Part shown: one piece after another, positions 5,377 through 18,618 of the stretch
Layout: every line of letters begins with the position of its first letter
How positions within the stretch are numbered: position 1 is the stretch's first letter
Assembly (NCBI GenBank): GCA_033764315.1
Contig: JANRJA010000229.1
Span: 1 to 64,000, forward strand
From: Oculatellaceae cyanobacterium bins.114
Lineage (GTDB): Bacteria; Cyanobacteriota; Cyanobacteriia; Elainellales; Elainellaceae
Length of the DNA stretch: 64,000 bases
Direction: 5' to 3'
Notes under the pieces: model-generated
Database searches by the model: none
The model's input: only the letters and a program-made list of their open reading frames with translations
Told to the model about the DNA's origin: nothing
Program-made: the position numbers and the translations under genes

Positions 5377-7470
5377 ATGGTGGACGTTCAAAATTTACTG
5401 GATGCCTTTTTAGATATTGAAGAGGTTGTTAAAGATCTCCATGGTGAGCAAGCAGCTCAATCCAAAAACAACGAGTTAAGAACGCTTCGCAGACGGTTTC
5501 TTGCCTCAGCCTGTAAGAAGGCACCTATTACAACCGATCGCAAAATGACGGAGGAAACAGGGAAAGAAGCAGACGAATGTTTGAGAAATCAACCTATTAA
5601 GCGATTGCTCAAGCTGCAGAGTGATTTGCAATCAGGATTTGATTTGATGAATGCTTCTCGCGCCAGCCGTAATACCTATAGTGCCAGACTTGAATGGTTT
5701 CTAAATTTGGCAAAGGAGTGCCCTTGGTGGCCCAACAGTCAAACCGTCAACATCCAAAATCAGTGCCGCCCTGGTCGTCACGTGAGTGGGCGGCGACACT
5801 ATTCTGATTTACCTCTAACGGTTCGCAGTGGGCAGTACGAGCAGTATCGACTAAGGGAAGAGGAAACACCACCTCATTTACAGCCTGAATTGGAGGACTT
5901 TTACTGCTTCCTAGTTGCTCCGGTTTATCCCAAACGCGTATGTGATGCGGTCAAGGATTCAACTGCTGACACTTATCTCAAAGATATTCGGCTGGAGCTA
6001 GGGTATTGGCATCATATTCGAGGTATGCCGTTAGAAGAGTTGACCTTGGATTGCTTGGTTCCTCTTGTTACCGAGGAACAGTTAGAGGGGTTGTCTCATC
6101 GAGAGCAGCAGAATCTTTGGGATGAGAAACAATTGCACATTGAGGAGTGGACTGAGGAATATTTTCAGGAAATTCAGCGGCGCAATAATTCCTTGAGTCC
6201 GAGGACTAAAAACGGCAAGCTTTTGGCACTACAAAGGTTGGCGCATTATCGTTATCGTCATCAGGTTAGACGAAAGCGTGACTACGATACCATTCCTGTC
6301 ATGAGCGTCATTCAGGAGAAGATTGGCCAGATTGTTAAAGTGATCAAGAAGTGGCAGAAGACCCGCACCTATGTTGCCAATCAAGATCGGAAGTGGCCTG
6401 ATGTTGTTGAGGGAGAGACTGCCCTAACCACTCTGCGGCGTACAGTAGTGGAGCCGTTGCGTTTGGAAACTCGCCCACGTCGTAAAAACGCAGCATTTCG
6501 TGAGGGACATGCCATTGCAAAATCGACCCAACACTATCTGAAATGGGCGTTTGTGTCGGACGTTCCGCCGCGACGGCAGTTTGACCTTCGTACCACTAAA
6601 GTGGCTCTAAGTTGTCCATTAAAGCGTCCAGATGACGTGCCGATTGATGGCTACTATTTTCCACTGCCGCCACCTGCGGTTCGTGACAAAGATCATGATG
6701 GAACTGTGGCTGACAACTATCTCTACAAAACCTATATTCATAAAGGAAAACTTTACCCAGAAGGGATATGGGTTTTGGAGCTTTGCTCCTTTAAGACGGA
6801 CGAAACTTACGGGGTGTACTCAATGGTGATTCCGAATCGGCAGTTTGGGGACGATACGCACTTCTACGAGTATCTAGAGCATTATCTGTGTGGATGGTGG
6901 ATGCCAGGAAAGTTCTACAAGCGCCACCGTTACACTTGGTGGGATGCCAAACTTAAAGGACAAGTGGGGCATTGGATTACAAAGGGGTGGATGGAGTTTG
7001 AACCAAAGGATCTGGAAGTTGTGGAGGAGCCAAGGGGACCTCTATGGCGGTGGGGTTACTTGTTTCCGTTACCAGAAACGGGAGAACAGGGTGATGGAAC
7101 AACTTTTGGTGGCTCCTACTTGAGAACTTCCTATCACCTGATTGGGAAACGCATCACACCCCATATGGTGCGCTATTTTTGGGCTACTTGGGCATTCCAG
7201 GTTGGATTAACCGATCGGCAGTTGGAGTCCCTCGCGTATGCAATGGGTCACAGTGTCAAAGCATTGCGAGAAATGTACGAGCGGTGTACGCCGGAGGAGA
7301 AGCTTCGTCCCATTTTTGAGGTAATCGATCGCTTGCTATTCGAGAAATTGGAAGAACCCCCAACTGATGAGAAGGTAGACGAGCGTATTCCGATGCGGTT
7401 AGTGGCGGAGCTACGAAAACTTAGCCCAGAAGAGCGACAACAAATCATGCAGATGGTTGAGAGTGCTTAG
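5377..7470 (+). CDS. Large divergent tyrosine recombinase/integrase-like protein
   Basis: PPRRQFDLR (catalytic R), ITPHMVRYFWAT (HxxR) and LAYAMGHSVKALREMY (H...Y) motifs; AGAGG ribosome-binding site upstream. Confidence 0.7.
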   Translation: MVDVQNLLDAFLDIEEVVKDLHGEQAAQSKNNELRTLRRRFLASACKKAPITTDRKMTEETGKEADECLRNQPIKRLLKLQSDLQSGFDLMNASRASRNTYSARLEWFLNLAKECPWWPNSQTVNIQNQCRPGRHVSGRRHYSDLPLTVRSGQYEQYRLREEETPPHLQPELEDFYCFLVAPVYPKRVCDAVKDSTADTYLKDIRLELGYWHHIRGMPLEELTLDCLVPLVTEEQLEGLSHREQQNLWDEKQLHIEEWTEEYFQEIQRRNNSLSPRTKNGKLLALQRLAHYRYRHQVRRKRDYDTIPVMSVIQEKIGQIVKVIKKWQKTRTYVANQDRKWPDVVEGETALTTLRRTVVEPLRLETRPRRKNAAFREGHAIAKSTQHYLKWAFVSDVPPRRQFDLRTTKVALSCPLKRPDDVPIDGYYFPLPPPAVRDKDHDGTVADNYLYKTYIHKGKLYPEGIWVLELCSFKTDETYGVYSMVIPNRQFGDDTHFYEYLEHYLCGWWMPGKFYKRHRYTWWDAKLKGQVGHWITKGWMEFEPKDLEVVEEPRGPLWRWGYLFPLPETGEQGDGTTFGGSYLRTSYHLIGKRITPHMVRYFWATWAFQVGLTDRQLESLAYAMGHSVKALREMYERCTPEEKLRPIFEVIDRLLFEKLEEPPTDEKVDERIPMRLVAELRKLSPEERQQIMQMVESA

Positions 7471-7493
7471 ATGAGGGGCGATCGCTTGCCATA

Positions 7494-7586
7494 GACCCAA
7501 CGCGATCGGTCACATCCATTTGTGAGCATTTGAAAATAAGCCGTCCTACTTTCTACCGCTATATCCGCCCAGAAATTAAGGGTTAG
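7494..7586 (+). pseudogene. Remnant of a serine resolvase/invertase C-terminal HTH
   Basis: Translates DPTRSVTSICEHLKISRPTFYRYIRPEIKG*, a Hin/resolvase-type HTH, with no start codon or catalytic domain nearby. Confidence 0.5.
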
Positions 7587-7713
7587 TGTCGGCAGCTATA
7601 ACAATAACGAGTTCACTTGTCGTAACGAAAAAGTTAATAGAAACTCACAAAATCACAAAAAATTTCGAGGCGCTTTGCGCCAAAAAGAGTAAGAGGGTAA
7701 AAGAGAGAAAGGG

Positions 7714-8541
7714 TTACGGAAGAGCCCTGGGGAAACTACAGACAACCCGAAAACCAAGGAGGTCGTTGGTCCCGCGCGGGTTGTAGTAGTCGCGAGTGGC
7801 AGAACGGCAATTCCTCGGAATGCTGCCCCAGGAACCGCCGCGAATTACTCGTGCAGTATCTTCATCATCACTTAACCAGGCACTACCATCGGTGGGGGCA
7901 CCCTCATAGTTGCTATGCCAGTGATCTTGGCACCACTCCCACACATTCCCATGCATGTCCGACAATCCCCAGGCGTTAGCAAACTCAAAGTGGTCTACTG
8001 GGGTTGTTTTTTCCCGGTATTCACCTTCAGGACTGTTGTTGTAAGTTTTGGTGCCATCATAGTTAACGACTTCAGGGGTAATAATTGAGCCAAAGTAAAA
8101 TGGCGTTTTGGTGCCAGCCCGACAGGCATATTCCCATTCCGCTTCGCTGGGCAGCCGATAGGCTCGTTTGGTATAGGCTGACAGGCGTTGGCAAAACTCC
8201 ACGGCGTCATACCAGCTTACTTGCTCTACTGGCAGGGTATCCCCTTTGAAATTTGAGGGATCTGGGTTGAGTTCTTGTTTAACGGGTGTCAATCCTGCTA
8301 CAAATCGCCATTGCGCCTGGGTTACAGGATATCGCCCCATACAGAAGTCTGAAACGTTGACTAAATGCTGAGGTCTTTCATCATCGTATCGTTCAGGCTC
8401 ATCCTCAGGGGAACCCATCTCAAACTGTCCACCGGGTATTACAATCATGTCCAGTCCAACGCTGTTGGCTAGCGACTCGGTGAAGTATTGAGCTTGTCTA
8501 TTTTCTGGGCGCAGTGTCAGTTCTACCATGCCAGACATCAA
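7714..8541 (-). CDS. DGR target 1: stand-alone FGE-sulfatase (C-type lectin fold) domain protein
   Basis: F.MGSP, RLPSEAEWEYACRAG, DMHGNVWEWC and RGGSW...GFRVV motifs; the C-terminus carries VR1. Confidence 0.92.
   Translation of the reverse strand: MMSGMVELTLRPENRQAQYFTESLANSVGLDMIVIPGGQFEMGSPEDEPERYDDERPQHLVNVSDFCMGRYPVTQAQWRFVAGLTPVKQELNPDPSNFKGDTLPVEQVSWYDAVEFCQRLSAYTKRAYRLPSEAEWEYACRAGTKTPFYFGSIITPEVVNYDGTKTYNNSPEGEYREKTTPVDHFEFANAWGLSDMHGNVWEWCQDHWHSNYEGAPTDGSAWLSDDEDTARVIRGGSWGSIPRNCRSATRDYYNPRGTNDLLGFRVVCSFPRALP
7727..7842 (-). repeat. DGR variable repeat VR1
   Basis: 116-bp match to the TR with 12 mismatches by manual alignment, all at TR adenines (coding strand). Confidence 0.95.
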
Positions 8542-8712
8542 TCAAGACTCGAGGGGTCAGCTAACACTTCAGCGAACTTACCAAGCTAACTGACCCAGTT
8601 TGATTTTCGGATACGGCTATCTTAATGATGAAGCGCATTACAGGAGCAGGTCTGGACTCTTCTAAACACGCCCGACAGATATCCCACCTGCCGGTTCTGG
8701 CCAGGAAGAGTG

Positions 8713-8828
8713 CTGGGGAAACTACAGACAACCCGAAAACCAAGGTTGTTGTTGGTTTCGCGCGGGTTGTTGTTGTTGCGAGTGGCAGAACGGCAATTCC
8801 TCGGATTGTTGTTCCAGGAACCGCCGCG
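8713..8828 (-). ncRNA. DGR template repeat (TR)
   Basis: Intergenic copy of the target 3' ends reading [38 protein letters not shown] with 11 AAY codons; sits just downstream of the RT gene. Confidence 0.95.
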
Positions 8829-8900
8829 TTTGCCGGCCTGCCCCACGACTATCCTATCGCACCCACCTGGTGTTATCTCTTTTCACACTGCTTCCAGTTT

Positions 8901-9068
8901 GCCATTCCCACGTTTTCTCTTCCGTCATTCCCACGTTTTCTCTTACGTCATTCACGCGTAGGCGGAAATATAGGCTGTTGGAATGGTTAATAGTGGATTC
9001 CCATTTTCATGGGAATGACGAGGCAAAAGTTCACGGGAATGACGGGGCAAAAGTTCACGGGAATGATG
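8901..9068. repeat. REP-like palindrome cluster (GTCATTCCC-N8-GGGAATCCA family) with tandem half-copies
   Basis: Full copy at 8993-9020, degenerate copy near 8946-8968, tandem cattcccacgttttctctt units and 24-bp gggaatgac...aaagttcac units. Confidence 0.8.
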
Positions 9069-9086
9069 AGCAAAAGGGGCGATCGC

Positions 9087-10172
9087 TCAGTTTACAGGGA
9101 GCCTGTGGGGTTCTGGCGGTGGGGTAAAGACTAACTGGTCAAATAGTCGTCGTCTCAGTCGGTGGGTGTCGCCATGCAACAGGTGTGCTTCCCAACTTTG
9201 GAGACGCTGCACTATATCTGAGAGTGATAGTTCTCCAGCTGTATAACCTCGCTGTAATTGACGGCAGCGATCGCGCGATCGCCTTAGGTTATCGTTACGC
9301 ACTCGAATGCGGTCGGGCAACACTCGAAAGCCTACAAAGTTAGCCCCGTGTCGAGTCTCAAAGAGTTGAGTTTTGACTGGGTGCAGCCTTAACCGTAGTG
9401 TAGCCAGATAGTCTACGATCGCCAGTCGTGCCTCTTCTAGGAAGGAGCGATCGCTTGAAAATAAAGCAAAATCATCGACATAGCGCAGATACTTTTGGGC
9501 ATGGAGTTGTTCTTTAACAAAATGGTCAAAGCCACTCAGGTAGAGATTGGCAAAGAACTGACTGGTGAGGTTGCCGATGGGTAGCCCTTTGCGCCGCTGA
9601 ATTGGGGTTAGCAGATTGTCGTGGGGAAAGTATTCTACGTCTTCGCCCTGGTCATTGCTATTGTCGATGATGCGATCGCTTAACCACAGTGTGTCTGGGC
9701 ACTTGATCTTACGCCGTAGCATCTCCTTCAGAATGGCGAGGTCAATACTTGGGAAATATTTGCGGATATCGCATTGCAACACATAGCGACTGCTGCGAGC
9801 AAAGTCTGTGAACCGAGTCAAGGCACGATGAGTACCATACCCCTTGCGATTGGCGTAGGTATCGTGAATGAATGTGCACTCGATCAAAGGGATAATGACA
9901 TTGCAGAGGGCGTGATGCACCACTCTGTCACGATAAGGTGCTGCCGAAATTAACCGCGACTTTGGATCTCGAATCACGAAGGTTTTATAGCCGCCCGGTG
10001 TATAGGTTTTCTGCCGCAGCTCTGTTTGCAGCTTTAACAGTTCATTCTCCAGGTTGTAGTTAAATGCCAATACGCTGGAGCGATATCGTTTGCCCTGCTG
10101 CGCTTGCTGCGACGCTTGCAGGAGATTTTCAAAATCCGTTATCTGCGACCACAAATTGCCATAGCGTTTCAT
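9087..10172 (-). CDS. DGR reverse transcriptase
   Basis: [34 protein letters not shown] (SQ motif typical of DGR RTs) and YLRYVDDF; no maturase or endonuclease extension; flanked by avd and the TR. Confidence 0.95.
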
Positions 10173-10507
10173 ACAGCTTGCTGTTGCTTAATCCAACTGC
10201 CCAGATCCATCCCGATACTGTTGATGGACTGCCCTGCGTACCCGTAACGACGAGCAGACAAAATCTGAAAGTCTAGCAATAGCCGGGTTTGATGGCGCAA
10301 TACTTCTAACCGAATGTTGAGCGCTTTCAGCTGAGGCAATTTCTCTTTGGTATAACGAACTTGAATAAAACCCTCCAGTAAGTCATACAGACCTGCAATA
10401 ATTCGTTCTCCCAAAGCAAATTTATGGTCACGCGGCAGCCGATTCAAGATGGGCACATACCACTTAATTAGATCGTAGGTCTTTTGAATAATCGGCAGAT
10501 CGCTCAA
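10169..10507 (-). CDS. avd: DGR accessory variability determinant Avd (four-helix bundle)
   Basis: [35 protein letters not shown]...[10 protein letters not shown]; stop overlaps the RT ATG. The TTG at 10507 is the probable start, because the ORF-track start (10606) lies inside a REP. Confidence 0.9.
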
Positions 10508-10600
10508 AGTAGGGTTCTCATTCACAATGACGCTACTCTTACCAAATTCCTCACCATGAATGCTGGAAGTACAGAATGTATTCGGTTTTGAGGCAGATTC

Positions 10601-10697
10601 CGTCATTCCCGTGAAACGGTTCGGTCATTCCCGTGAAAACGGGAATCCACTTCTAAGTATCCTATTTATTTGGATTCCCACCTGCGCGGGAATGACG
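10601..10697. repeat. REP-like inverted doublet plus a half-copy
   Basis: gtcattcccgtgaaaacgggaatccac at 10624-10650 and tggattcccacctgcgcgggaatgacg at 10671-10697. Confidence 0.85.
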
Positions 10698-10774
10698 GGG
10701 AGATAGCCAAAATCGCAAAAAAAATTCGAGGCGCTCTGCGCCAAAAAGAGTAAGAGGGTAAAAGAGAGAAAGGG

Positions 10775-11635
10775 TTAACTAAGAGCCCTGGGGAAACTAC
10801 AGACAACCCGAAAACCAAGGCTGTAGTCGGTAGCGGGCGGGTCGTTGACGAAGCGAGAGGCAGAACGGCAACTCCTCGGATTGAGGCCCCAGGAACCGCC
10901 GCGTATCACTCGTCTTGCATTCTCATCTTCACTCAACCAGGCACTTCCATCAGTGGGTGCCCCCTCATAGTTATCATGCCAATGATCTTGACACCATTCC
11001 CAGACGTTGCCATGCATGTCGCACAGCCCAAACGCATTGGCGCTGCTAAAATGGTCTACCGGAGTTGTTTCTTGTCGATATTCACCTTTAGGACCTTGCC
11101 CGTAAGAACCTGACCATTTATATTTTTCGTTATCTGTTCCTCGATAATTTGCCACCTCTGTTGTGATCGTCTCTCCAAAGTGAAACGGGGTTGTGGTGCC
11201 CGCTCGACAGGCATATTCCCATTCCGCTTCGCTCGGTAGCCGATAACTGCGTCCGGTGTAGTGGGAAAGGCGGGCACAGAACTCGACCGCATCGTACCAG
11301 CTCACCCGCTCTACTGGACGGTTGTCACCCTTGAACTGTGAGGGATCAGCCTTCAGTTCTCGCTCTGCTTGCGGTAGCCCTGCCACAAATCGCCATTGGG
11401 CTTGAGTGATGGGGTATTTGCCCATGCAAAAGGCACTCACGCTCACCTCATGCTGGGGTCCTTCATGCTCCATCCGCTCAGGTTCATCCTCTGGCGAACC
11501 CATCATAAAGGTGCCTGCTGGAATCAGCATCATTTTAAGTGCCAGGTGATTGCCCAATGGTTCATTAAAAAACTGGGCAGTTCCCTGCCGTTGCAGATAG
11601 GTGAGTTTTGGCAGTGGATCTGAAATGGCAGCCAT
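10775..11635 (-). CDS. DGR target 2: stand-alone FGE-sulfatase (C-type lectin fold) domain protein
   Basis: Same FGE motifs as target 1; the C-terminus carries VR2. Confidence 0.92.
   Translation of the reverse strand: MAAISDPLPKLTYLQRQGTAQFFNEPLGNHLALKMMLIPAGTFMMGSPEDEPERMEHEGPQHEVSVSAFCMGKYPITQAQWRFVAGLPQAERELKADPSQFKGDNRPVERVSWYDAVEFCARLSHYTGRSYRLPSEAEWEYACRAGTTTPFHFGETITTEVANYRGTDNEKYKWSGSYGQGPKGEYRQETTPVDHFSSANAFGLCDMHGNVWEWCQDHWHDNYEGAPTDGSAWLSEDENARRVIRGGSWGLNPRSCRSASRFVNDPPATDYSLGFRVVCSFPRALS
10788..10903 (-). repeat. DGR variable repeat VR2
   Basis: 116-bp match to the TR with 17 mismatches by manual alignment, 16 at TR adenines. Confidence 0.95.
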
Positions 11636-11659
11636 CGTTTTTCATACAGTAATTTCTTC

Positions 11660-11825
11660 CGTCATTCCCGTGAAAACGGGAATCCACCTCTATGTATCCT
11701 AATTGATCTGGATTCCCGCGCAGGCGGGAATGACAGCCATAAATTTCCTTCGTCATTCCCGTGAAAACGGGAATCCACAAAAAACCATTCCCACGTCCGT
11801 CATTCCCGTGAAAACGGGAATCCAC
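11660..11825. repeat. REP-like cluster (4 copies)
   Basis: cgtcattcccgtgaaaacgggaatccac at 11660, 11751 and 11798; an inverted variant at 11709-11734. Confidence 0.88.
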
Positions 11826-11842
11826 AAAAAACCAGCAAACCC

Positions 11843-12154
11843 TTAACCAGTAGTCCCCTCCTCCCCAAAAACCGTCACCCACAAATCCAACCACTCAGGG
11901 TTTGCCTCCTCAATCAACGCAATCTTCCAAGCTCGATTCCACTTTTTGAGCTGCTTTTCACGCTGAATCGCTGTAGCTATGTCACTATGCTGCTCAAAAT
12001 AGACGAGGCAGTGAATGCTATAGCGCTTTGTGAACCCATCAACCAGATCATTGCGATGTTCCCAAACCCTTTTAATCAGATCGCTGGTTACTCCAATATA
12101 AAGGGTTCCATTACGCCGGCTTGCCATGATGTAGATGGCAGGCTGTTTGTTCAT
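11843..12154 (-). CDS. Small GIY-YIG nuclease family protein (UPF0213-like)
   Basis: IYIMASRRNGTLYIGVTSDLIKRVWEH and AIQREKQLKKWNRAWK motifs. Confidence 0.9.
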   Translation of the reverse strand: MNKQPAIYIMASRRNGTLYIGVTSDLIKRVWEHRNDLVDGFTKRYSIHCLVYFEQHSDIATAIQREKQLKKWNRAWKIALIEEANPEWLDLWVTVFGEEGTTG

Positions 12155-12191
12155 GTTTATAGATGTTAAATGTTGGGGTTATTAAGTTTAT

Positions 12192-12255
12192 AGATTCCCA
12201 TTTTCATGGGAATGACAGCCGTAAATTGTTGGATTCCCGCGTCGGCGGGAATGAC
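12192..12255. repeat. REP-like pair
   Basis: agattcccattttcatgggaatgac and tggattcccgcgtcggcgggaatgac. Confidence 0.85.
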
Positions 12256-12383
12256 AGGGAAAAGGGCGCAAGAATGATTGGAAGATAGCCAAAATAGCAA
12301 AAAATTCGAGGCGCTTTGCGCCCAAGACAGTAAGAGAGTAAGAGGGTAAAAGAGAAAGGGCTTCGACAAGCTCAGCCCAAGGG

Positions 12384-15188
12384 TTAGCTAAGAGCCCTGG
12401 GGAAACTACAGACAACTCGAAAACCAAAGCTGACGTAGGTAACGCGCGGGGAGTAAAAGTTGCGAGTGGCAGAACGGCAATTCCTCGGAATGAAGTCCCA
12501 GGAACCGCCGCGTATTACTCGTGCAGCATCCTCGTCTTCACTCAACCAGGCGCTGCCATCCGTGGGTGCTCCCTCATAGGTGTCATGCCAGTGATCCTGG
12601 CACCACTCCCACACATTCCCATGCATATCCGATAATCCCCAGGCATTGGCAACCTCAAAGTGGTCTACTGGGGTTGTTTTTTCCCGGTATTCACCTTTTG
12701 GTCCGCCATTATAAGCTTCGGTTCCTCGATAGTTGGCGAGTTCAGGGCTAATAGTTTCGCCAAAGTGAAATGGGGTTGTTCTTCCAGCCCGACATGCATA
12801 TTCCCATTCAGCCTCAGTTGGTAAGCGGTATAAGTTTCCACTGTGGCGAGAGAGGCGATCGCAAAACTCCACGGCATCGTACCAACTCACTTGAGTAACA
12901 GGATGGTCAAGCTCCCCAAACTGCTTAGCTAGTGCGGGGTCTAGTGCTCGATTGATCTCAGGTAGCAGAGTCGCTACAGCTTGCCACTGCGCCTGTGTAA
13001 TTGGGAATCGCCCTATAAAGAACGGTTCAATTGTCACTTCATGTTGGGGAGACTCGCTCGATTGGCAATCGGGTTCATTGTCAGGCGACCCCATCAAAAA
13101 TGTTCCTCCAGGGATCGAAACCATTTCAAGCAAGATGCTTCTGGGGAGGCTTAGCGTTTCAAAGAAGTGATATCCGTGTCCTTCTTGATGGCGGATCACC
13201 CATTCAGGGGTACTACCATACCTGGCAGTGCCATCATACCTGGCGGTGCCATCATGCTTAATGGTGCCATCACGTTGGATAGTATCATTGCGCTGGAGAG
13301 TGGCAACAATAAAGTTAAAGGGCTGTACGTCGATGGAAGTGGCATCTCTGTCTGGTTCAATAACGATGGTGGTTATTGTAAACTCGTCGGTTTGAATGGG
13401 TGGGAAGTCTTCCCCCAGTTCAGGCTCTGCTTCAAGGTCTATAAAGCGAGCGGTTCTAAAGTTGAGCACCTTTAGCTCTGGATCGGCTGCACTAGAATCA
13501 ATCGGTTGAATCCAGTCAGAATAGCCCTGAGCATCTTGCTCCACTAACTGAGCCAGCTCAGCATAGTCGCCGCCCAAGCGATGAAGAACCTCTGTCGCAA
13601 CCTGGGCAAAGGGCAAAATGGCATCTTTTGCTGCTTTACTCCAGGCAGATTTTGGGGAGAGCAGCGCCGTAAAGCTCTTGATTTCAAAACCCAGCGTTCT
13701 AGCAATGCGCTGAGATAGGGCTTCCAGTACCCCCAGAGTTTCATCTAATGGCGTAGTCTCATTCAACACCTTCCGAACATCTTCGACAAAGTCGTATTGC
13801 GTAGAGGTATCCAGCGTTGATTGACCTGGTTTTACATTTTTGGGCTTAACGGCTTCTAATAGCCCACTCGAATACACCTCGGCAATATGCACGGGCTGCA
13901 CATCTGGCAATAATTCTTGCTGAATCAGATGCACGACGGGCAACTCTACCGGAACTGCTGCCATCAGACTAGCTAAGTGTTGAGCCAGGGGAGAGGCAGT
14001 CGCTTTGAACAGTTCTACTCGTTCTTTCGCAGATTTCGGGTGAATCACTGCCCTGGATCGATCCCGGTCTGGATCTTTCACCCACGATAGGTCAAACAGG
14101 CGAGCCGGAGACCGCTGCCGACCCGCTGCCGCTATGACCAATGCCCACTGCTTCAGCGCACTAGGAACTAGCGTCACAATTGGGACTGTCAATCCATCCA
14201 CCGGGGCAATTTCAGTGCGAATTGGCAGTTCTCTAACGTGCAGTTTTGAATTGGGGGCACCAGGGATCAGGGAACCAACCTGCACAGCAAACCCTACATC
14301 CAGTTCACTTTCGCTCCACAGCCGTTCGGGTAACAGTTGGGCGATCGCCGCTGGTCCGTGCTGGCTCCAGAGGGCTAACCAGTCATGGATCTGTCCGCGT
14401 TTCCAGATTTGAGATCGGCAGTCGCTGATCAATAGCACTAACCGCCGCCCCGATGTATCAACCAGCTCTTTATGGCTTCGTAACGGTTGGTCTAGCTCCG
14501 TGTCTGTCTGTTTCTGCTTTTTAGCTACCAGTTCAGGTTGCCCTGTAGCCCCCTCGCGGACATACCAGGTTCGGACATTCCGAAAAGCACCCTGGCATTC
14601 CACCAACTGTTGAAATTCATCCAGGGTATCTTGCCAAATAAAGCTAAATTGATTGGCTTCAATCACTAACTCCAGGTCAAACCAGCGTTCGGGTGAGGGT
14701 TGGAGAACCGGCACCCAGATATCTCGCTCGGCAATGCGGTTAACGGTGGCAATTTCATCGAGTTCTAATCGGGTCAATGACGGCACCTTTCGCATCAAAG
14801 GACGCAGCGATCGCCCAATGTCACGCGGGTTGGGCAGAGCAGGGGCAGCCTGGACTTGAATGGGCAAGCCCTGTTCTGGTGTTTCGACAGAGGATGGCTC
14901 AGGCTTAGCCCTCTGGGGCATATAGGCAGAAACAAAGGGCTGGGGTTCTACTGGCGGCGTGTTGTCATCAATGATCTGAATCGATGCTCCTGCACCAGAA
15001 TCCTCTGATCCGTCTGACTCATCCATTGGATCAATGTCGTAAGCGCCACCCATTTTAGACGCTAACCAGAGCGCATCGGCAATGTCTTCGTCGTGCAACA
15101 CCGACTGTGCCTCACTAAAGGCTGCAATCTCCTGATCGCTCAGAAGCAGACTATTTTGCTGCAACATCGCGATGAGGCGATCGATCAT
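12384..15188 (-). CDS. DGR target 3: vWA-like (SAV_2336 N-terminal-type) protein fused to a C-terminal FGE-sulfatase/C-type lectin domain
   Basis: DIADALWLA, LRPLMRKVPS, LDEIATVNRIAE, LVLLISDCRS and QLLPERLW motifs of the MoxR-associated vWA-like family; C-terminal FGE domain with VR3; start overlaps the MoxR stop. Confidence 0.88.
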   Translation of the reverse strand: MIDRLIAMLQQNSLLLSDQEIAAFSEAQSVLHDEDIADALWLASKMGGAYDIDPMDESDGSEDSGAGASIQIIDDNTPPVEPQPFVSAYMPQRAKPEPSSVETPEQGLPIQVQAAPALPNPRDIGRSLRPLMRKVPSLTRLELDEIATVNRIAERDIWVPVLQPSPERWFDLELVIEANQFSFIWQDTLDEFQQLVECQGAFRNVRTWYVREGATGQPELVAKKQKQTDTELDQPLRSHKELVDTSGRRLVLLISDCRSQIWKRGQIHDWLALWSQHGPAAIAQLLPERLWSESELDVGFAVQVGSLIPGAPNSKLHVRELPIRTEIAPVDGLTVPIVTLVPSALKQWALVIAAAGRQRSPARLFDLSWVKDPDRDRSRAVIHPKSAKERVELFKATASPLAQHLASLMAAVPVELPVVHLIQQELLPDVQPVHIAEVYSSGLLEAVKPKNVKPGQSTLDTSTQYDFVEDVRKVLNETTPLDETLGVLEALSQRIARTLGFEIKSFTALLSPKSAWSKAAKDAILPFAQVATEVLHRLGGDYAELAQLVEQDAQGYSDWIQPIDSSAADPELKVLNFRTARFIDLEAEPELGEDFPPIQTDEFTITTIVIEPDRDATSIDVQPFNFIVATLQRNDTIQRDGTIKHDGTARYDGTARYGSTPEWVIRHQEGHGYHFFETLSLPRSILLEMVSIPGGTFLMGSPDNEPDCQSSESPQHEVTIEPFFIGRFPITQAQWQAVATLLPEINRALDPALAKQFGELDHPVTQVSWYDAVEFCDRLSRHSGNLYRLPTEAEWEYACRAGRTTPFHFGETISPELANYRGTEAYNGGPKGEYREKTTPVDHFEVANAWGLSDMHGNVWEWCQDHWHDTYEGAPTDGSAWLSEDEDAARVIRGGSWDFIPRNCRSATRNFYSPRVTYVSFGFRVVCSFPRALS
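12397..12512 (-). repeat. DGR variable repeat VR3
   Basis: 116-bp match to the TR with 18 mismatches by manual alignment, 15 at TR adenines. Confidence 0.93.
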
Positions 15189-16282
15189 TTGCCCTTAGCC
15201 TCCGACGAACGATTTTTAGGCTTGACCTCTAATGCCCGATCTAACGGTGCAAGTAGGTGGTCAAGCAAGCTCTCTTTTTCGTCGCCTACCCAGTCGCGCT
15301 GGCGAATAATCATAAACAGGGCATTCAACAGTTGATCGGTAGAAAGTTGCTCTCTTCCTTTATCTCGACGTTTAAGAAACTGATCAATCAACTCGCTGAC
15401 CTGACTGTCTGAAAGATTGCATTGCTCTAGATGGGCTTTGATAATGCGCTCTAGCTGAACGCGATCGGGGTCGCGCATATTGAGCCGCAAACAACGACGC
15501 AGAAAAGCAGGCGGAAAATCGCGTTCACCATTACTGGTCAAAATCACCAGAGGAAACTCCTGGCAGGTGATTCGGCCACCGCGAATTTTAACTTTTTTTT
15601 CTGCGTAGGTGGTTTCGGCTTCGTCGGTATAGGCTGTGCGTACCTTGACGACGATTGGCTCAGTTTTTTGATTGGGGTCATCCGTATCTTTTTCCAGTCG
15701 CGCCAACTCTGGGATCTCAAACCGACCTTCCTCAAAGATAGTCAGCAGGTCATTCGGTAGATCAATATCACTTTTATCAATCTCATCAATAATCAGCACA
15801 CGGGGTTTAGGTGACTCCAGCAGAGCAGTTCCCAGAGGTCCCAGGGTAATGTAGTCGGCTATTTTTTGTGGGTCTTCGGTGTAGTCCCCTTTCGCTTCAG
15901 ACTGCTTGACCTCTTGCAGACGACCAATGGCATCGTAGGTGTAAAGACCATCCTTCAGCGTGGTACGGGTAGTAATGGGCCAATAGAGGACCTCCCCTAG
16001 CTTCAACTCATGAGCCACCGAATACGCTAGAGAAGATTTACCCGTCCCCGGTTTGCCGGTAATCAGCAGCGGTCGCCGCAGGTACAGCGCCGCATTAACC
16101 ATCTCAATCTCTTCAGGCTGTGCCTGAAAGGTTTTACCCCGACGTTTGCGGCGACTAACACCTGGATTGGGGTCTTTACCAAAGGGTCGCCAGGGTGGGG
16201 CATCGGGCAAGTCGGCGATCGCGTCATGGGGTTCGCGGTTATCGCCTTGAAACAGCTTCCAGTCTTCGGGTGGGTTACTCAT
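15185..16282 (-). CDS. MoxR-family AAA+ ATPase
   Basis: Walker A GKPGTGKS, Walker B VLIIDEIDK, and TSNGERDFPPAFLRRC. Confidence 0.92.
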   Translation of the reverse strand: MSNPPEDWKLFQGDNREPHDAIADLPDAPPWRPFGKDPNPGVSRRKRRGKTFQAQPEEIEMVNAALYLRRPLLITGKPGTGKSSLAYSVAHELKLGEVLYWPITTRTTLKDGLYTYDAIGRLQEVKQSEAKGDYTEDPQKIADYITLGPLGTALLESPKPRVLIIDEIDKSDIDLPNDLLTIFEEGRFEIPELARLEKDTDDPNQKTEPIVVKVRTAYTDEAETTYAEKKVKIRGGRITCQEFPLVILTSNGERDFPPAFLRRCLRLNMRDPDRVQLERIIKAHLEQCNLSDSQVSELIDQFLKRRDKGREQLSTDQLLNALFMIIRQRDWVGDEKESLLDHLLAPLDRALEVKPKNRSSEAKGK

Positions 16283-16294
16283 GGAGTTCTCAAA

Positions 16295-17674
16295 TTAGGC
16301 AGACTTCGGGGGGACTAAATAAGGGTCATCCCATAGGAGAGATAAATGATGGCCAATATGGGCATCCACTGGTGCTTTACGGGCTTTTAGACGCTCTTCT
16401 TTAACCGTATGAAGCAAATTTCTGAGCTTGCATAAACTCAATATTCGAGCCAGCTCAGTCTCGTTAGTTGTGCTATTAAGATTTGAACGACCCCAGATAG
16501 CGATCGGTATGCCTACTTGTAAAAGTACTCCAAAGAGGCTATTTACCCCAACAGTAGTCGGAGCTTGCTTAACTTTCAAACCAACTGCCGTTTCCTCAAG
16601 TAGCTCGTAGTAAAGCGTTTCCAGGTCATCATCGTCCCCTTCAATGAAAGCATCACAAGCCATCTTCTCTAATAAAGACTTGTGCCGCTCCCACTTTTGC
16701 TTCCATATTTTCTCTTGCTTATAGCTGCGACTCCAGCGCTCTGTACATCGCAAAACCACCTTATACGGACGACCCAGGAGTGGTTTAACAGGTCCATCGT
16801 CATCTAATTGCCAAAGATCAACGTCATGATTCATCAGTTCTACAGGCAAGCAGACATGTAACTCTGGCTCATTATCAAACAAGTGGCTACTTTCAGTTAA
16901 AAATTGAGAAATGAGGTTGGGTAGTTCATGGGGCAAATTGGACTGTGCATAGGTTTCATCCCCTGTCATCCCAGCAATTATGAGGGGGCTGATACCTTGC
17001 TGATGAGCTTGATAGTCTTGAGTGTCGCGAATCAGCCACGCTTTAATCTGATAGTAAGTCTCAGACTGCGATTGGGTTGATGCTCCGTCACTACGGCTGA
17101 TGGCTATCAGCAAAGCCGTCTGAAGCTGTTGCGCCTGTTGCGCCTGTTGTGCCTCCTGCTGATTTACCTGTTGCAGTAAGGCAGCCCAGTCCTTATCTAG
17201 CTGTTGATCAATCCATTGCTGCAACGCTGCGATCGCACCTGCTTCTTGAAGCTCAGACACCAAGTAGGCAACGAACTCTTCCAATGCGTCATAGTCAAAT
17301 TGACCTTTAGGAATTCGTAATAACTGAGTAACAATCTCACCTGGCGTTGCAGGATCATGCTGAATCTTCCAACCTCGACGCTTCAAAACATTTAAATAAG
17401 TAGCCCGCAAAATATCCATCTTTTCCTGGATATCACTAGCTTGCAAAATCTCAATCAGATGCTCAATGTTTCGTTTACGGAGAGAACCTTTCAAGCTCTC
17501 GATTTCCTGATCAATCTGCTCAATTTGTTTGAACAACAGATGCAAACGGTTTTCGTACTGGTTCTTCAGTGTTATGTCAATGAGCGCGTCAAGTTCAGCT
17601 TGCACTTCATCAAGCTGTTTCTTATATTCAGAGCGTCGTGATTGCAAATACTCTAATTTAGGGTTACTACTCAT
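16295..17674 (-). CDS. VMAP-like (vWA-MoxR-associated) protein with an N-terminal helical effector-associated domain
   Basis: C-terminal LHVCLPVELMNHDVDLW, GIPIAIWGR and HLSLLWDDP motifs typical of VMAP-C; positioned directly upstream of moxR. Confidence 0.75.
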   Translation of the reverse strand: MSSNPKLEYLQSRRSEYKKQLDEVQAELDALIDITLKNQYENRLHLLFKQIEQIDQEIESLKGSLRKRNIEHLIEILQASDIQEKMDILRATYLNVLKRRGWKIQHDPATPGEIVTQLLRIPKGQFDYDALEEFVAYLVSELQEAGAIAALQQWIDQQLDKDWAALLQQVNQQEAQQAQQAQQLQTALLIAISRSDGASTQSQSETYYQIKAWLIRDTQDYQAHQQGISPLIIAGMTGDETYAQSNLPHELPNLISQFLTESSHLFDNEPELHVCLPVELMNHDVDLWQLDDDGPVKPLLGRPYKVVLRCTERWSRSYKQEKIWKQKWERHKSLLEKMACDAFIEGDDDDLETLYYELLEETAVGLKVKQAPTTVGVNSLFGVLLQVGIPIAIWGRSNLNSTTNETELARILSLCKLRNLLHTVKEERLKARKAPVDAHIGHHLSLLWDDPYLVPPKSA

Positions 17675-18375
17675 CCTTTCCTAACCTTTTGAATATCTTG
17701 ATCAACCTGCTCAATCTGCTGAAACAAAAGATTCAAACGATTTTCATACTGACCTTTAATGGTTACATCAGCAATGGCTTCCATTTCGGCTTGAACGACT
17801 TCAAGCTGCTGCTCAAGATTGCTACGTTTGTTTTGTAAGTATTGCAGCTTGAGAGTCTGAGCTGAGTTAGTGGGAGCCTCTGCCTCTACTGACAGTTCAG
17901 GCGATCCCACAATTTCCTCAAGCGCCCGAATCAGCCGAGTCAGATCCTGATGGAAATCAGGGTCAGGTCGAGCTTGAGCCGCATTCCGATAAGCTAACTC
18001 TGCTAGCGTATTTGGCAATTCATCGACTCTCGGCAACCGTGCCCCTCCCACTAGCAAAGGAATCACGGGAATGTTTCTCCCTAATGCCGTCTCAATCTCT
18101 GCCCGCACCCAGTCATCAGGCTTATCAAGCCGTCGATTTCCCTCATCATCCTGCACGCTGAGCCAAGTTGAACCAATGACTGCGACTAATACCTGACAAT
18201 TGCCCACACCTTGATTGAGATGCGTCCGAAAGTCCACCCCAGGCGGAATAGAATCTACATCCTTAAAAACAACCTTTCGCCCAAAGTGTTCAGACAGGCG
18301 ATCGTAGATACGTCCAGTAACATCATTGCTGTCACTGCGACGGTAGGAAATAAAAATCGAGTTTGAAGGGGGCAT
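17671..18375 (-). CDS. TIR-domain protein with a C-terminal helical effector-associated domain
   Basis: IFISYRRSDS, VFKDVDSIPPGVDF and DWVRAEIETAL (conserved Glu) TIR_2 motifs; ATG at 18375 preferred; stop overlaps the VMAP start. Confidence 0.88.
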   Translation of the reverse strand: MPPSNSIFISYRRSDSNDVTGRIYDRLSEHFGRKVVFKDVDSIPPGVDFRTHLNQGVGNCQVLVAVIGSTWLSVQDDEGNRRLDKPDDWVRAEIETALGRNIPVIPLLVGGARLPRVDELPNTLAELAYRNAAQARPDPDFHQDLTRLIRALEEIVGSPELSVEAEAPTNSAQTLKLQYLQNKRSNLEQQLEVVQAEMEAIADVTIKGQYENRLNLLFQQIEQVDQDIQKVRKG

Positions 18376-18618
18376 GGTTGAGAGGGAGATTTCAGCAAAA
18401 TAGAAAATACTTTCTCTAAGTGCTATTAAAACCTCTACATAACCCAATCTGCTATGTCAGCAAACTTCTTTTTATGCCCAATATGTCGATAGCAGGTGGA
18501 TGGCTAACCACAAAATAGTTCAAATTGAAGTCATCGACTGCTTTAAGTCTTGTCAGCGACTGTAGTGCCAACTTTTGCCATCATCGTCAAAGGGAGAAAA
18601 ACAAGAAAACTGCTCCAG

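Follow-up and report, generated by a model that had tools for sequence, protein, structure and literature searches.

Gene organization of the locus

The stretch of DNA analyzed here, referred to below as the window, comprises positions 1 to 64,000 of contig JANRJA010000229.1 (assembly GCA_033764315.1) from Oculatellaceae cyanobacterium bins.114. On its minus strand it contains a group of genes that surround a reverse transcriptase (RT), a template repeat (TR) and three variable repeats (VRs). Read along this strand, the group starts with genes for a TIR-domain protein, a VMAP protein, a MoxR-like AAA ATPase and a large protein with a lectin-fold C-terminus (target 3), and continues with a GIY-YIG gene, a second lectin-fold gene (target 2), avd, the RT gene, TR and a third lectin-fold gene (target 1). 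In our assessment, the locus is almost certainly a complete, chromosomally located diversity-generating retroelement (DGR) of the type known from cyanobacteria. A DGR had been proposed at this site in an earlier note, and the call is now fully supported because Avd, a full-length RT, RNA elements flanking TR, and VRs at the 3' ends of lectin-fold open reading frames (ORFs) are all present. No interruption was found in the ORFs of Avd, RT or the three targets, and every part of the element found in the window is intact. The octamer GCGATCGC, which marks cyanobacteria, occurs at a density of 1.6 per kb.

Template repeat and variable repeats

When both strands of the window were scanned without gaps for the 116-nt TR, four places had an identity of at least 70%, all of them on the minus strand, namely TR itself and the three VRs. 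TR (8713..8828, read 8828->8713) is a non-coding copy of a target C-terminus, composed of 29 A, 37 C, 26 G and 24 T. VR1 (7727..7842) lies within the final 42 codons of target 1 and is identical to TR at 104 of 116 positions; the values are 99 of 116 for VR2 (10788..10903) in target 2 and 98 of 116 for VR3 (12397..12512) in target 3. Each VR starts with the first base of a codon of its ORF, and 10 nt separate its end from the stop codon. All 12 mismatches of VR1 are located at TR adenines (100%), as are 16 of the 17 mismatches of VR2 (94%; the exception is a G->C change) and 15 of the 18 mismatches of VR3 (83%; the exceptions are two C->T changes and one G->A change, two of them synonymous and one replacing Leu with Phe). 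Under a hypergeometric null with 29 adenines in 116 positions, the respective P values are 7.5e-9, 5.8e-11 and 1.5e-8. All three VRs lie above the level of 80% of TR/VR mismatches at TR adenines that is given as a criterion for DGRs in PMC7517822. Altogether, 43 of the 47 mismatches fall on the TR adenines, that is, on 25% of the positions, and 21 of the 29 adenines are changed in at least one VR. The adenine-specific mismatches claimed in the earlier note are therefore reproduced by realignment at the same coordinates, and so are, exactly, the three peptide segments quoted there (WGSIPRN..DYYNPRGTNDL, WGLNPRS..FVNDPPATDYS and WDFIPRN..NFYSPRVTYVS).

Twenty-eight of the 29 TR adenines occupy codon positions 1 or 2, and 22 of them reside in 11 AAY codons; TR is AAY-rich, and none of the VRs is. 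Because the adenines are found almost only at positions 1 and 2 of AAY codons, 15 residues are accessible at each of 11 sites without a stop codon. Indeed, no combination of A-to-N changes in the 38 complete TR codons yields a stop, in agreement with the earlier count of adenines and AAY codons and with the stop-proof template described there. The number of variants calculated in that note for the AAY codons, 15^11 (8.65e12), is right if taken as a lower bound. Each round of mutagenesis would, besides the 11 AAY sites, also allow a few residues at five more sites, and when these five other adenine-bearing codons are included, the number of peptide variants per target rises to 8.3e15. A stop-proof, AAY-rich template and several targets in one locus are ordinary in this class of DGRs.

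At the 3' side, the homology between TR and the VRs extends 7-9 nt beyond the end given previously, to approximately positions 7718, 10781 and 12390. This extension includes two differences that are not of the adenine type: TR reads CCCCAG-CA-CTCTT, whereas all three VRs read CCCCAG-GG-CTCTT. The locus thus has the asymmetry between the initiation of mutagenic homing (IMH) site of the VRs and the corresponding IMH* site of TR, and a like difference is found in a second DGR of the same genome (contig C236). The CA/GG asymmetry would be expected to have a role in homing.

The earlier note had also recommended a genome-wide search for further remote VRs. Across the 251 contigs of the assembly (6.64 Mb, 90.7% complete), a DNA search and blastn (word size 7, E <= 1e-3) returned no fourth VR of this TR, although one may lie in the sequence missing from the assembly. 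The VR-like matches elsewhere in the assembly either belong to the second DGR on C236 or fit both TRs poorly (C110 and C187).

Avd and the reverse transcriptase

The avd gene (10169..10606, minus strand) was assigned with the NCBIfam equivalog model NF033474 (DivGenRetAVD; 134.5 bits, cut-off 80) and with the Pfam model bAvd (69.1 bits, cut-off 40). It overlaps by 4 nt with the gene for the 361-aa RT (9087..10172, minus strand), which matches RVT_1 at 5e-21 and contains the motifs ...LPIGNLTSQ... and ...RYVDDF..., the latter including the catalytic YVDD. An IGxxxSQ palm motif is specific for DGR RTs. The spacing of I181, G182 and Q187 in the RT of the Bordetella phage BPP-1 (bRT), as given in the preprint bioRxiv 10.1101/2023.10.23.563531, equals that of I-G-x4-Q in the RT described here. 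No NCBIfam RT model reached its cut-off for the 361-aa protein. The RT aligns end to end (residues 1-353) with the RT of the second DGR in the genome, and likewise with a metagenomic orthologue (1500 nt, 4 gaps).

A covarying RNA structure downstream of TR

TR is followed on its 3' side by a structured, spacer-like RNA segment (8554..8712, minus strand) that shows covariation. For comparison, we used the orthologous locus of G022, a genome from a different genus of the same family, in which the cassette has the order target, avd, RT, TR, target. The approximately 195 nt 3' of TR are 90% identical between the two loci, compared with 79% for the RT gene. An alignment of 23 TR loci from 14 genomes was then analyzed with RNAalifold, which predicted 39 pairs; compensatory changes occur at 29 of these. 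Together with a long-range duplex that joins a downstream CCTGCTCC box to a G-run on the 5' side of TR, these pairs make up a model of 49 pairs, which are 90.8% paired, against 29-48% after the 3' partners had been slid by 1-3 columns. Changes on both sides were observed at 34 pairs, and each of five measures was reached by none of 500 shuffles. The slid control is more telling than the shuffles, given that the aligned loci share ancestry and also served to derive the structure.

Several helices can be placed on the minus strand of the locus. In H1, the IMH* end of TR (GCACTCTTC; 8713-8705) pairs with the downstream strand GAAGAGTCC (8654-8662). H2 is a 9-bp stem-loop (8694-8686 with 8672-8680) with a GGGA-type loop, and H3 (8639-8634 with 8610-8615) is a hairpin followed by an A-rich stretch, hairpin and stretch together covering 8639-8599. 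The terminal hairpin, H4, is formed by 8596-8584 with 8554-8566. TR is bracketed by a further (stop) duplex, in which GGGGCAGG (8837..8844) pairs with 8643-8650 through 8 core pairs. Across the 23 TR loci, pairing amounts to 93-100% in helices 2-7 and is weaker in the bracketing duplex, at 73% over 10 pairs, the core pairs of which are formed in 15-23 of the 23 sequences. All helices are intact in the copy at this locus, and the VRs are without the covarying structure that follows TR. According to the preprint of Handa and colleagues (bioRxiv 10.1101/2023.10.23.563531), matching RNA elements are present in the Bordetella-phage DGR and are predicted for 207 of 278 Avd-bearing DGRs. A search of Rfam in the region 7000-13000 yielded no family at E <= 1 except for one chance-level match to a plant miRNA.

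A -10-like hexamer, TAGGAT (8851..8856, minus strand), is located 6 nt upstream of the G-run and may belong to a dedicated promoter of the TR RNA. The pattern TAnnnT occurs at exactly this spacing from the G-run in 11 of the 23 TR loci, and, by analogy, a strong transcription start site has been mapped downstream of the DGR RT of Nodularia, as reported in PMC3610870. A scan for consensus sigma-70 promoters found none on the minus strand of the locus, the matches being fewer than in shuffled sequences.

These elements can be placed in a scheme of mutagenic homing whose steps are borrowed from the model of the Bordetella phage. An RNA containing TR and the structured 3' segment of about 195 nt would be transcribed, probably from its own promoter just upstream of TR, and would be bound by the Avd-RT complex. 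The 3' end of TR (GCACTCTTC) would pair with the downstream strand (GAAGAGTCC), and cDNA synthesis would be primed in cis, starting near the last TR bases (CCCCAG), that is, near position 8714. RT would copy TR faithfully save at adenines, where any base would be possible, and any one of the three lectin-fold genes would receive the cDNA in place of the homologous 116 nt at its 3' end. Since the CA/GG difference falls within the primer duplex and past the presumed start, it would never be copied into the VRs; the direction of homing would be kept because the VRs carry GG where TR carries CA just past this start.

Target genes and the TIR/VMAP/MoxR operon

Target 1 (275 aa; 7714..8541, minus strand) and target 2 (286 aa; 10775..11635, minus strand) consist of an FGE-sulfatase/C-type lectin (CLec) domain only. 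In the 934-aa target 3 (12384..15188, minus strand), this domain occupies residues 688-926 and is preceded by an SAV_2336-type N-terminal region (residues 33-500). The FGE-sulfatase domain was recognized in all three proteins with E-values from 1e-56 to 1e-59, and the solved relatives of target 1 include PvdO (4.8e-37) and TvpA of Treponema denticola (2y3c; 3.2e-20). The three targets are paralogues with 66-68% nucleotide identity across the lectin domain. Target 1 starts 13 nt past the end of the TR-associated RNA, with an in-frame ATG one codon further in, at 8538.

The N-terminal part of target 3 matches the SAV_2336 N-terminal domain model NF041121 with 431.7 bits (cut-off 200); no Pfam domain was found in it at E <= 0.1, and a search against PDB sequences at E <= 1 gave nothing usable. 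Twelve of 14 homologous frames from relatives were aligned; they have 860-1030 aa, are 37-57% identical, and have the same architecture, including the lectin-fold C-terminus. A structure model built on this alignment is poor as a whole, with a mean predicted local distance difference test score (pLDDT) of 58, but good for residues 170-450. Residues 167-356, with pLDDT values of mostly 70-90, best match von Willebrand factor A (vWA) domains: the match to 9doc (Z 8.6, root-mean-square deviation (rmsd) 3.0 A over 131 residues) is middling, as is that to the vWA domain of NorD from the NorQ/NorD pair (Z 7.5). The C-terminus matches TvpA (2y3c) with Z 8.6 and an rmsd of 3.6 A over 156 residues. The helical residues 385-555, which follow the vWA-like domain, resemble the helical/winged-helix part of STAND/NB-ARC proteins (Z 8.1 for CED-4 and 7-7.7 for plant NLRs); matches at this level are middling, and helical models commonly give them.

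The start of target 3 is overlapped by the gene for the MoxR-like AAA ATPase (15185..16282, minus strand), which was assigned by its AAA_5 match (44.1 bits, cut-off 22). The VMAP protein (16295..17674, minus strand) contains VMAP-M1 (65.9 bits, cut-off 25) and VMAP-C (133.6 bits, cut-off 27), and the TIR-domain protein (17671..18447, minus strand), a putative effector, contains TIR_2 (54.7 bits, cut-off 28). Weak EAD9 matches, below the cut-off of 25, are present at the N-terminus of VMAP (16.7 bits) and at the C-terminus of the TIR protein (17.2 bits); in the ternary systems of Kaur et al. (2020), paired effector-associated domains (EADs) connect the effector. Target 3 would be the large vWA-like/lectin-fold protein of this TIR/VMAP/MoxR operon, with the variable tip thought to sense a ligand or antigen. 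By analogy with published systems, it is a putative sensor of an immune-like conflict system.

A module downstream of the target genes

Each of the three target genes is followed by a module composed of a pyrimidine-rich spacer, a GCGC-type hairpin with a loop of 3-4 nt, and TCRA with a T-run, and the same holds for every lectin-fold target of the genome. Downstream of VR1 (7650..7713, minus strand), a 32-nt spacer precedes the hairpin GGCGC-AAA-GCGCC (7669-7681), which is followed by TCGAAATTTTTT. The flank of VR2 (10711..10774, minus strand) has the same spacer, the hairpin GGCGC-AGA-GCGCC (10730-10742) and a T-run. In the flank of VR3 (12300..12383, minus strand), the spacer is 61 nt long and includes an extra small hairpin insert, and the hairpin GGCGC-AAA-GCGCC (12310-12322) is again followed by a T-run. 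Between targets 1 and 2, 57 of 64 flank positions agree, including nearly all of the first 52, compared with 66% identity of the lectin-domain coding sequences. A search of the 6.6 Mb with the hairpin-plus-tail pattern produced 6 matches, all directly after the six lectin-fold target genes; the three outside the window are at about 3230 on C236, 31702 on C110 and 23109 on C187. Since the pattern was written from these flanks, all that follows from this result is that the pattern does not represent terminators in general. A GC-rich hairpin with a T-rich tail is present no more than 150 nt after the stop codon in 17 of the 24 VR flanks compared (14 genomes); the spacers are 32-95 nt long with 74-94% pyrimidines on the coding strand.

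The insert in the VR3 flank, GGCTGAGCTTGTCGAAGCC (12335-12360, minus strand), is located between the stop codon of target 3 and the pyrimidine tract. Inserts of this type recur in the flanks of two other target genes, one on C110 and one in the relative G001.

The hairpin at the targets of phage DGRs is reported in PMC3240598 to combine a stem of 7-10 bp with a GRNA loop, at a distance of 4-34 bp to the VR; the same paper describes an effect of the hairpin-VR distance on efficiency. The hairpin described here differs in that its stem has 5 bp (5-9 bp in relatives) and its loop 3-4 nt, and in its position 32-95 nt after the stop codon (relatives included) and behind a pyrimidine tract. Cruciforms near remote targets are suggested, rather than described, in PMC7517822, and a literature search for papers joining 'diversity-generating retroelement' with 'pyrimidine-rich' returned none. 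The module may be a homing signal, a terminator, or both. We tentatively put forward the possibility that it is a DNA element licensing genes for mutagenic homing in this cyanobacterial DGR clade. If so, the licensing module would act at several times the distance of the phage hairpin and with a different loop rule, might couple homing to termination of target transcription, and would predict which of the dispersed paralogues are addressable.

A rival explanation is that all three VRs derive from this TR and are rewritten at different rates, VR3 being the poorer target. The hairpin of VR3 is 61 nt from the stop codon instead of 32 nt, owing to a 29-nt insert, the non-adenine mismatches are most numerous in this VR, distance matters in the phage system (PMC3240598), and different diversification of targets within one locus is reported in PMC10907252. 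However, hairpins at 50-95 nt from the stop codon are common among the VRs of relatives, the role of the hairpin is itself putative, and the difference between 0 non-adenine mismatches in VR1 and 3 in VR3 is not significant (P 0.25); we regard unequal rewriting as doubtful.

Past activity and the age of the variable repeats

The TRs of this genome and of G022 differ at 7 non-adenine positions, and at these diagnostic sites the VRs can be compared with both templates. Cells of the VRs match the TR of their own genome in 19 of 21 cases here and in 14 of 14 cases in G022, and the TR of the other genome in none; the two that deviate from their own TR are private changes of VR3. As the VRs track the TR of their own genome, homing continued after the two lineages had split. 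Concerted evolution of TR and VRs thus demonstrates past activity of the DGR. The statement in the earlier note that the DGR 'is or was recently active' holds in its past tense, and its present tense goes beyond these data. The TR of G022 also has an extra AAC codon, which is common to one of its two VRs and absent from the other.

The same note ranked VR1 as the most recently rewritten repeat and VR3 as the oldest. This order rests on counts of 0, 1 and 3 mismatches among the 87 non-adenine positions (Fisher P = 0.25 for VR1 versus VR3); it is a reasonable guess and is not demonstrated, and the changes in VR3 fit drift after homing and date nothing.

Several observations weigh against the interpretation of the locus as a complete, working DGR. 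A look-up of sequencing runs for 7600-12600 turned up none. A metagenome scan with an exact 30-nt stretch of the spacer RNA gave no contig from the same population and a single contig of 2.7 kb, which is about 80% identical and therefore represents an orthologue, not an allele of the same population. Palindromic repeats are inserted between RT and TR. In G022, the cassette (7713-8877 of the locus on G022:C31) has lost RT codons 1-106 through a 343-nt deletion, and decay therefore does occur in this lineage. Furthermore, analogy is the basis for placing the priming site and the promoter and for the proposed role as a sensor, and the vWA identity of target 3 is moderately supported. VR2 and VR3 also carry 1 and 3 non-adenine mismatches, respectively.

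It could accordingly be argued that the element is a relic which diversified three genes in the past and is now silent or inactive, with the differences among the VRs as fossils. The mismatches in VR2 and VR3 are as expected of point mutations since the last homing, the G022 cassette combines an N-terminally truncated RT with VRs that match its TR, a decayed cassette is present on C187 of the same genome, and repeats have been inserted in every spacer. However, the Avd, RT and target ORFs are uninterrupted, every RNA helix is intact in this copy, VR1 has no mismatch at any of its 87 non-adenine positions, and the IMH-type GG has been retained in all three VRs. A relic is, in view of this, unlikely. 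The absence of any retroelement, with the repeats as C-termini of paralogous genes, diverged through point mutation or gene conversion, and TR as a pseudogene fragment, has in its favor the paralogy of the targets and the TR-like copies inside target-like reading frames in two relatives, but is effectively refuted by the concentration of the mismatches on TR adenines, by an AAY-rich composition restricted to TR, and by the position of TR next to Avd and RT and ahead of a covarying RNA structure that does not follow the VRs.

Other elements in the genome and its relatives

The second DGR of this genome is complete (C236:1566-4168) and is composed of a target, avd, RT and a template, TR2; its RT and Avd are 63% and 66% identical to those in the window, respectively, and 12 of 12 core TR2/VR mismatches are located at adenines. 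A decayed-looking cassette (C187:22784-24002) contains a lectin-fold target followed by a truncated avd and has no RT, and an orphan lectin-fold target is found at the end of a contig (C110:31775-32569). The VR-like segments of C187 and C110 have no close TR match in the assembly.

In two relatives, at G005:C81:50190-50570 and G003:C1:5445475-5445855, a repeat that continues a target-like reading frame is followed by a spacer-like RNA element. The G005 repeat is depleted of adenines and ends on its 3' side in a VR-type GGG; it could be either a decayed template or one that has itself undergone mutagenesis.

The four intergenic spacers of the cassette contain nine copies of a 23-nt palindromic repeat, GATTCCC-N8/9-GGGAATGA (8996..12254), starting at 8996, 10625, 10673, 11662, 11711, 11753, 11800, 12193 and 12232. 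These are the only nine copies in the 6.64-Mb assembly, and they are partly arranged as inverted doublets 48 nt apart. The survey of the repeat covered 41 genomes; among the 40 relatives, 449 copies were counted in G012, frequently in doublets of the same kind, compared with 0-2 in each of the other 39. As a direct recent donor G012 was rejected: its sole TR-like target has 54% protein identity, and the contig carrying it is free of the repeat. Palindromic repeats flank the single-copy gene for a 103-aa protein with a GIY-YIG nuclease domain (11843..12154, minus strand) between targets 3 and 2; a search with this protein found no counterpart in the relatives G012, G022 and G001 and thus gave no connection between the gene and the repeats. 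The wider surroundings resemble a defence island, with genes for Cas6 (955->281), a WYL/WCX regulator (1943->942) and a tyrosine integrase (19788->18619).

Comparison with known systems

The class to which this DGR belongs, loci with multiple CLec/FGS targets, and the link with MoxR-VMAP ternary systems that contain vWA-FGS fusion proteins have already been published for filamentous cyanobacteria, and the locus has each of the defining DGR features that could be tested. Kaur et al. (2020; PMC7159879) report an association with DGRs for about 80% of the VMAP systems of cyanobacteria and gammaproteobacteria, and multiple and remote targets are reported for 52 genomes (Vallota-Eastman et al., 2020; PMC7517822). 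The cyanobacterial RT clade, 5E, is described by Dore et al. (2024; PMC10907252), who propose that the targets are antigen sensors and describe paired short and long targets in a clade related to the cyanobacterial one. As far as these three reports describe them, the cyanobacterial vWA/CLec MoxR-VMAP DGRs have the same combination of Avd, RT and TR with C-terminal CLec/FGS variable regions, and likewise several targets per locus, with short CLec-only proteins next to a long, N-terminally extended one, neighboring genes for a MoxR ATPase, VMAP and TIR or adaptor proteins, and more than one DGR as well as dispersed CLec paralogues per genome. Nothing categorical sets the present locus apart from them. 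Specific to it are the order target 3, GIY-YIG, target 2, avd, RT, TR, target 1, the palindromic repeats confined to the spacers, and the start of target 1 only 13 nt after the TR-associated RNA.

With the DGR of BPP-1 (mtd-avd-TR-brt), as described in the sources cited above, the locus has in common adenine-specific mutagenesis, the Avd-RT pair and a structured spacer RNA after TR. Also common to both are the pairing of the TR 3' end with the spacer, a stem-loop of the Avd-binding type and a TR-bracketing duplex, all three predicted here, as well as the asymmetry of the VR and TR 3' ends and a GC hairpin downstream of the VR. In contrast, the BPP-1 element is phage-borne, has one target, and has TR between avd and RT, whereas the element described here is chromosomal, has three targets, and has TR downstream of RT. 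The folds of the targets differ as well, Mtd in BPP-1 and an FGE-sulfatase-type CLec here. TvpA of T. denticola is a lipoprotein on the surface of a pathogen. It has the FGE-sulfatase-type C-type-lectin fold and a C-terminal VR in common with the present targets, one of which, in contrast, also carries a vWA-like domain and is encoded in a conflict-system operon.

The locus leaves the existing knowledge of DGRs unchanged and is a good example rather than a new kind. Within 8 kb, all known parts of a DGR are intact, namely the enzyme pair, the template with a likely promoter, the covarying spacer RNA, and three targets with their flanks, together with a conflict-system operon whose putative sensor is diversified. 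It is therefore a convenient natural test case for what diversified lectin-fold sensors recognize and for what marks genes as targets.

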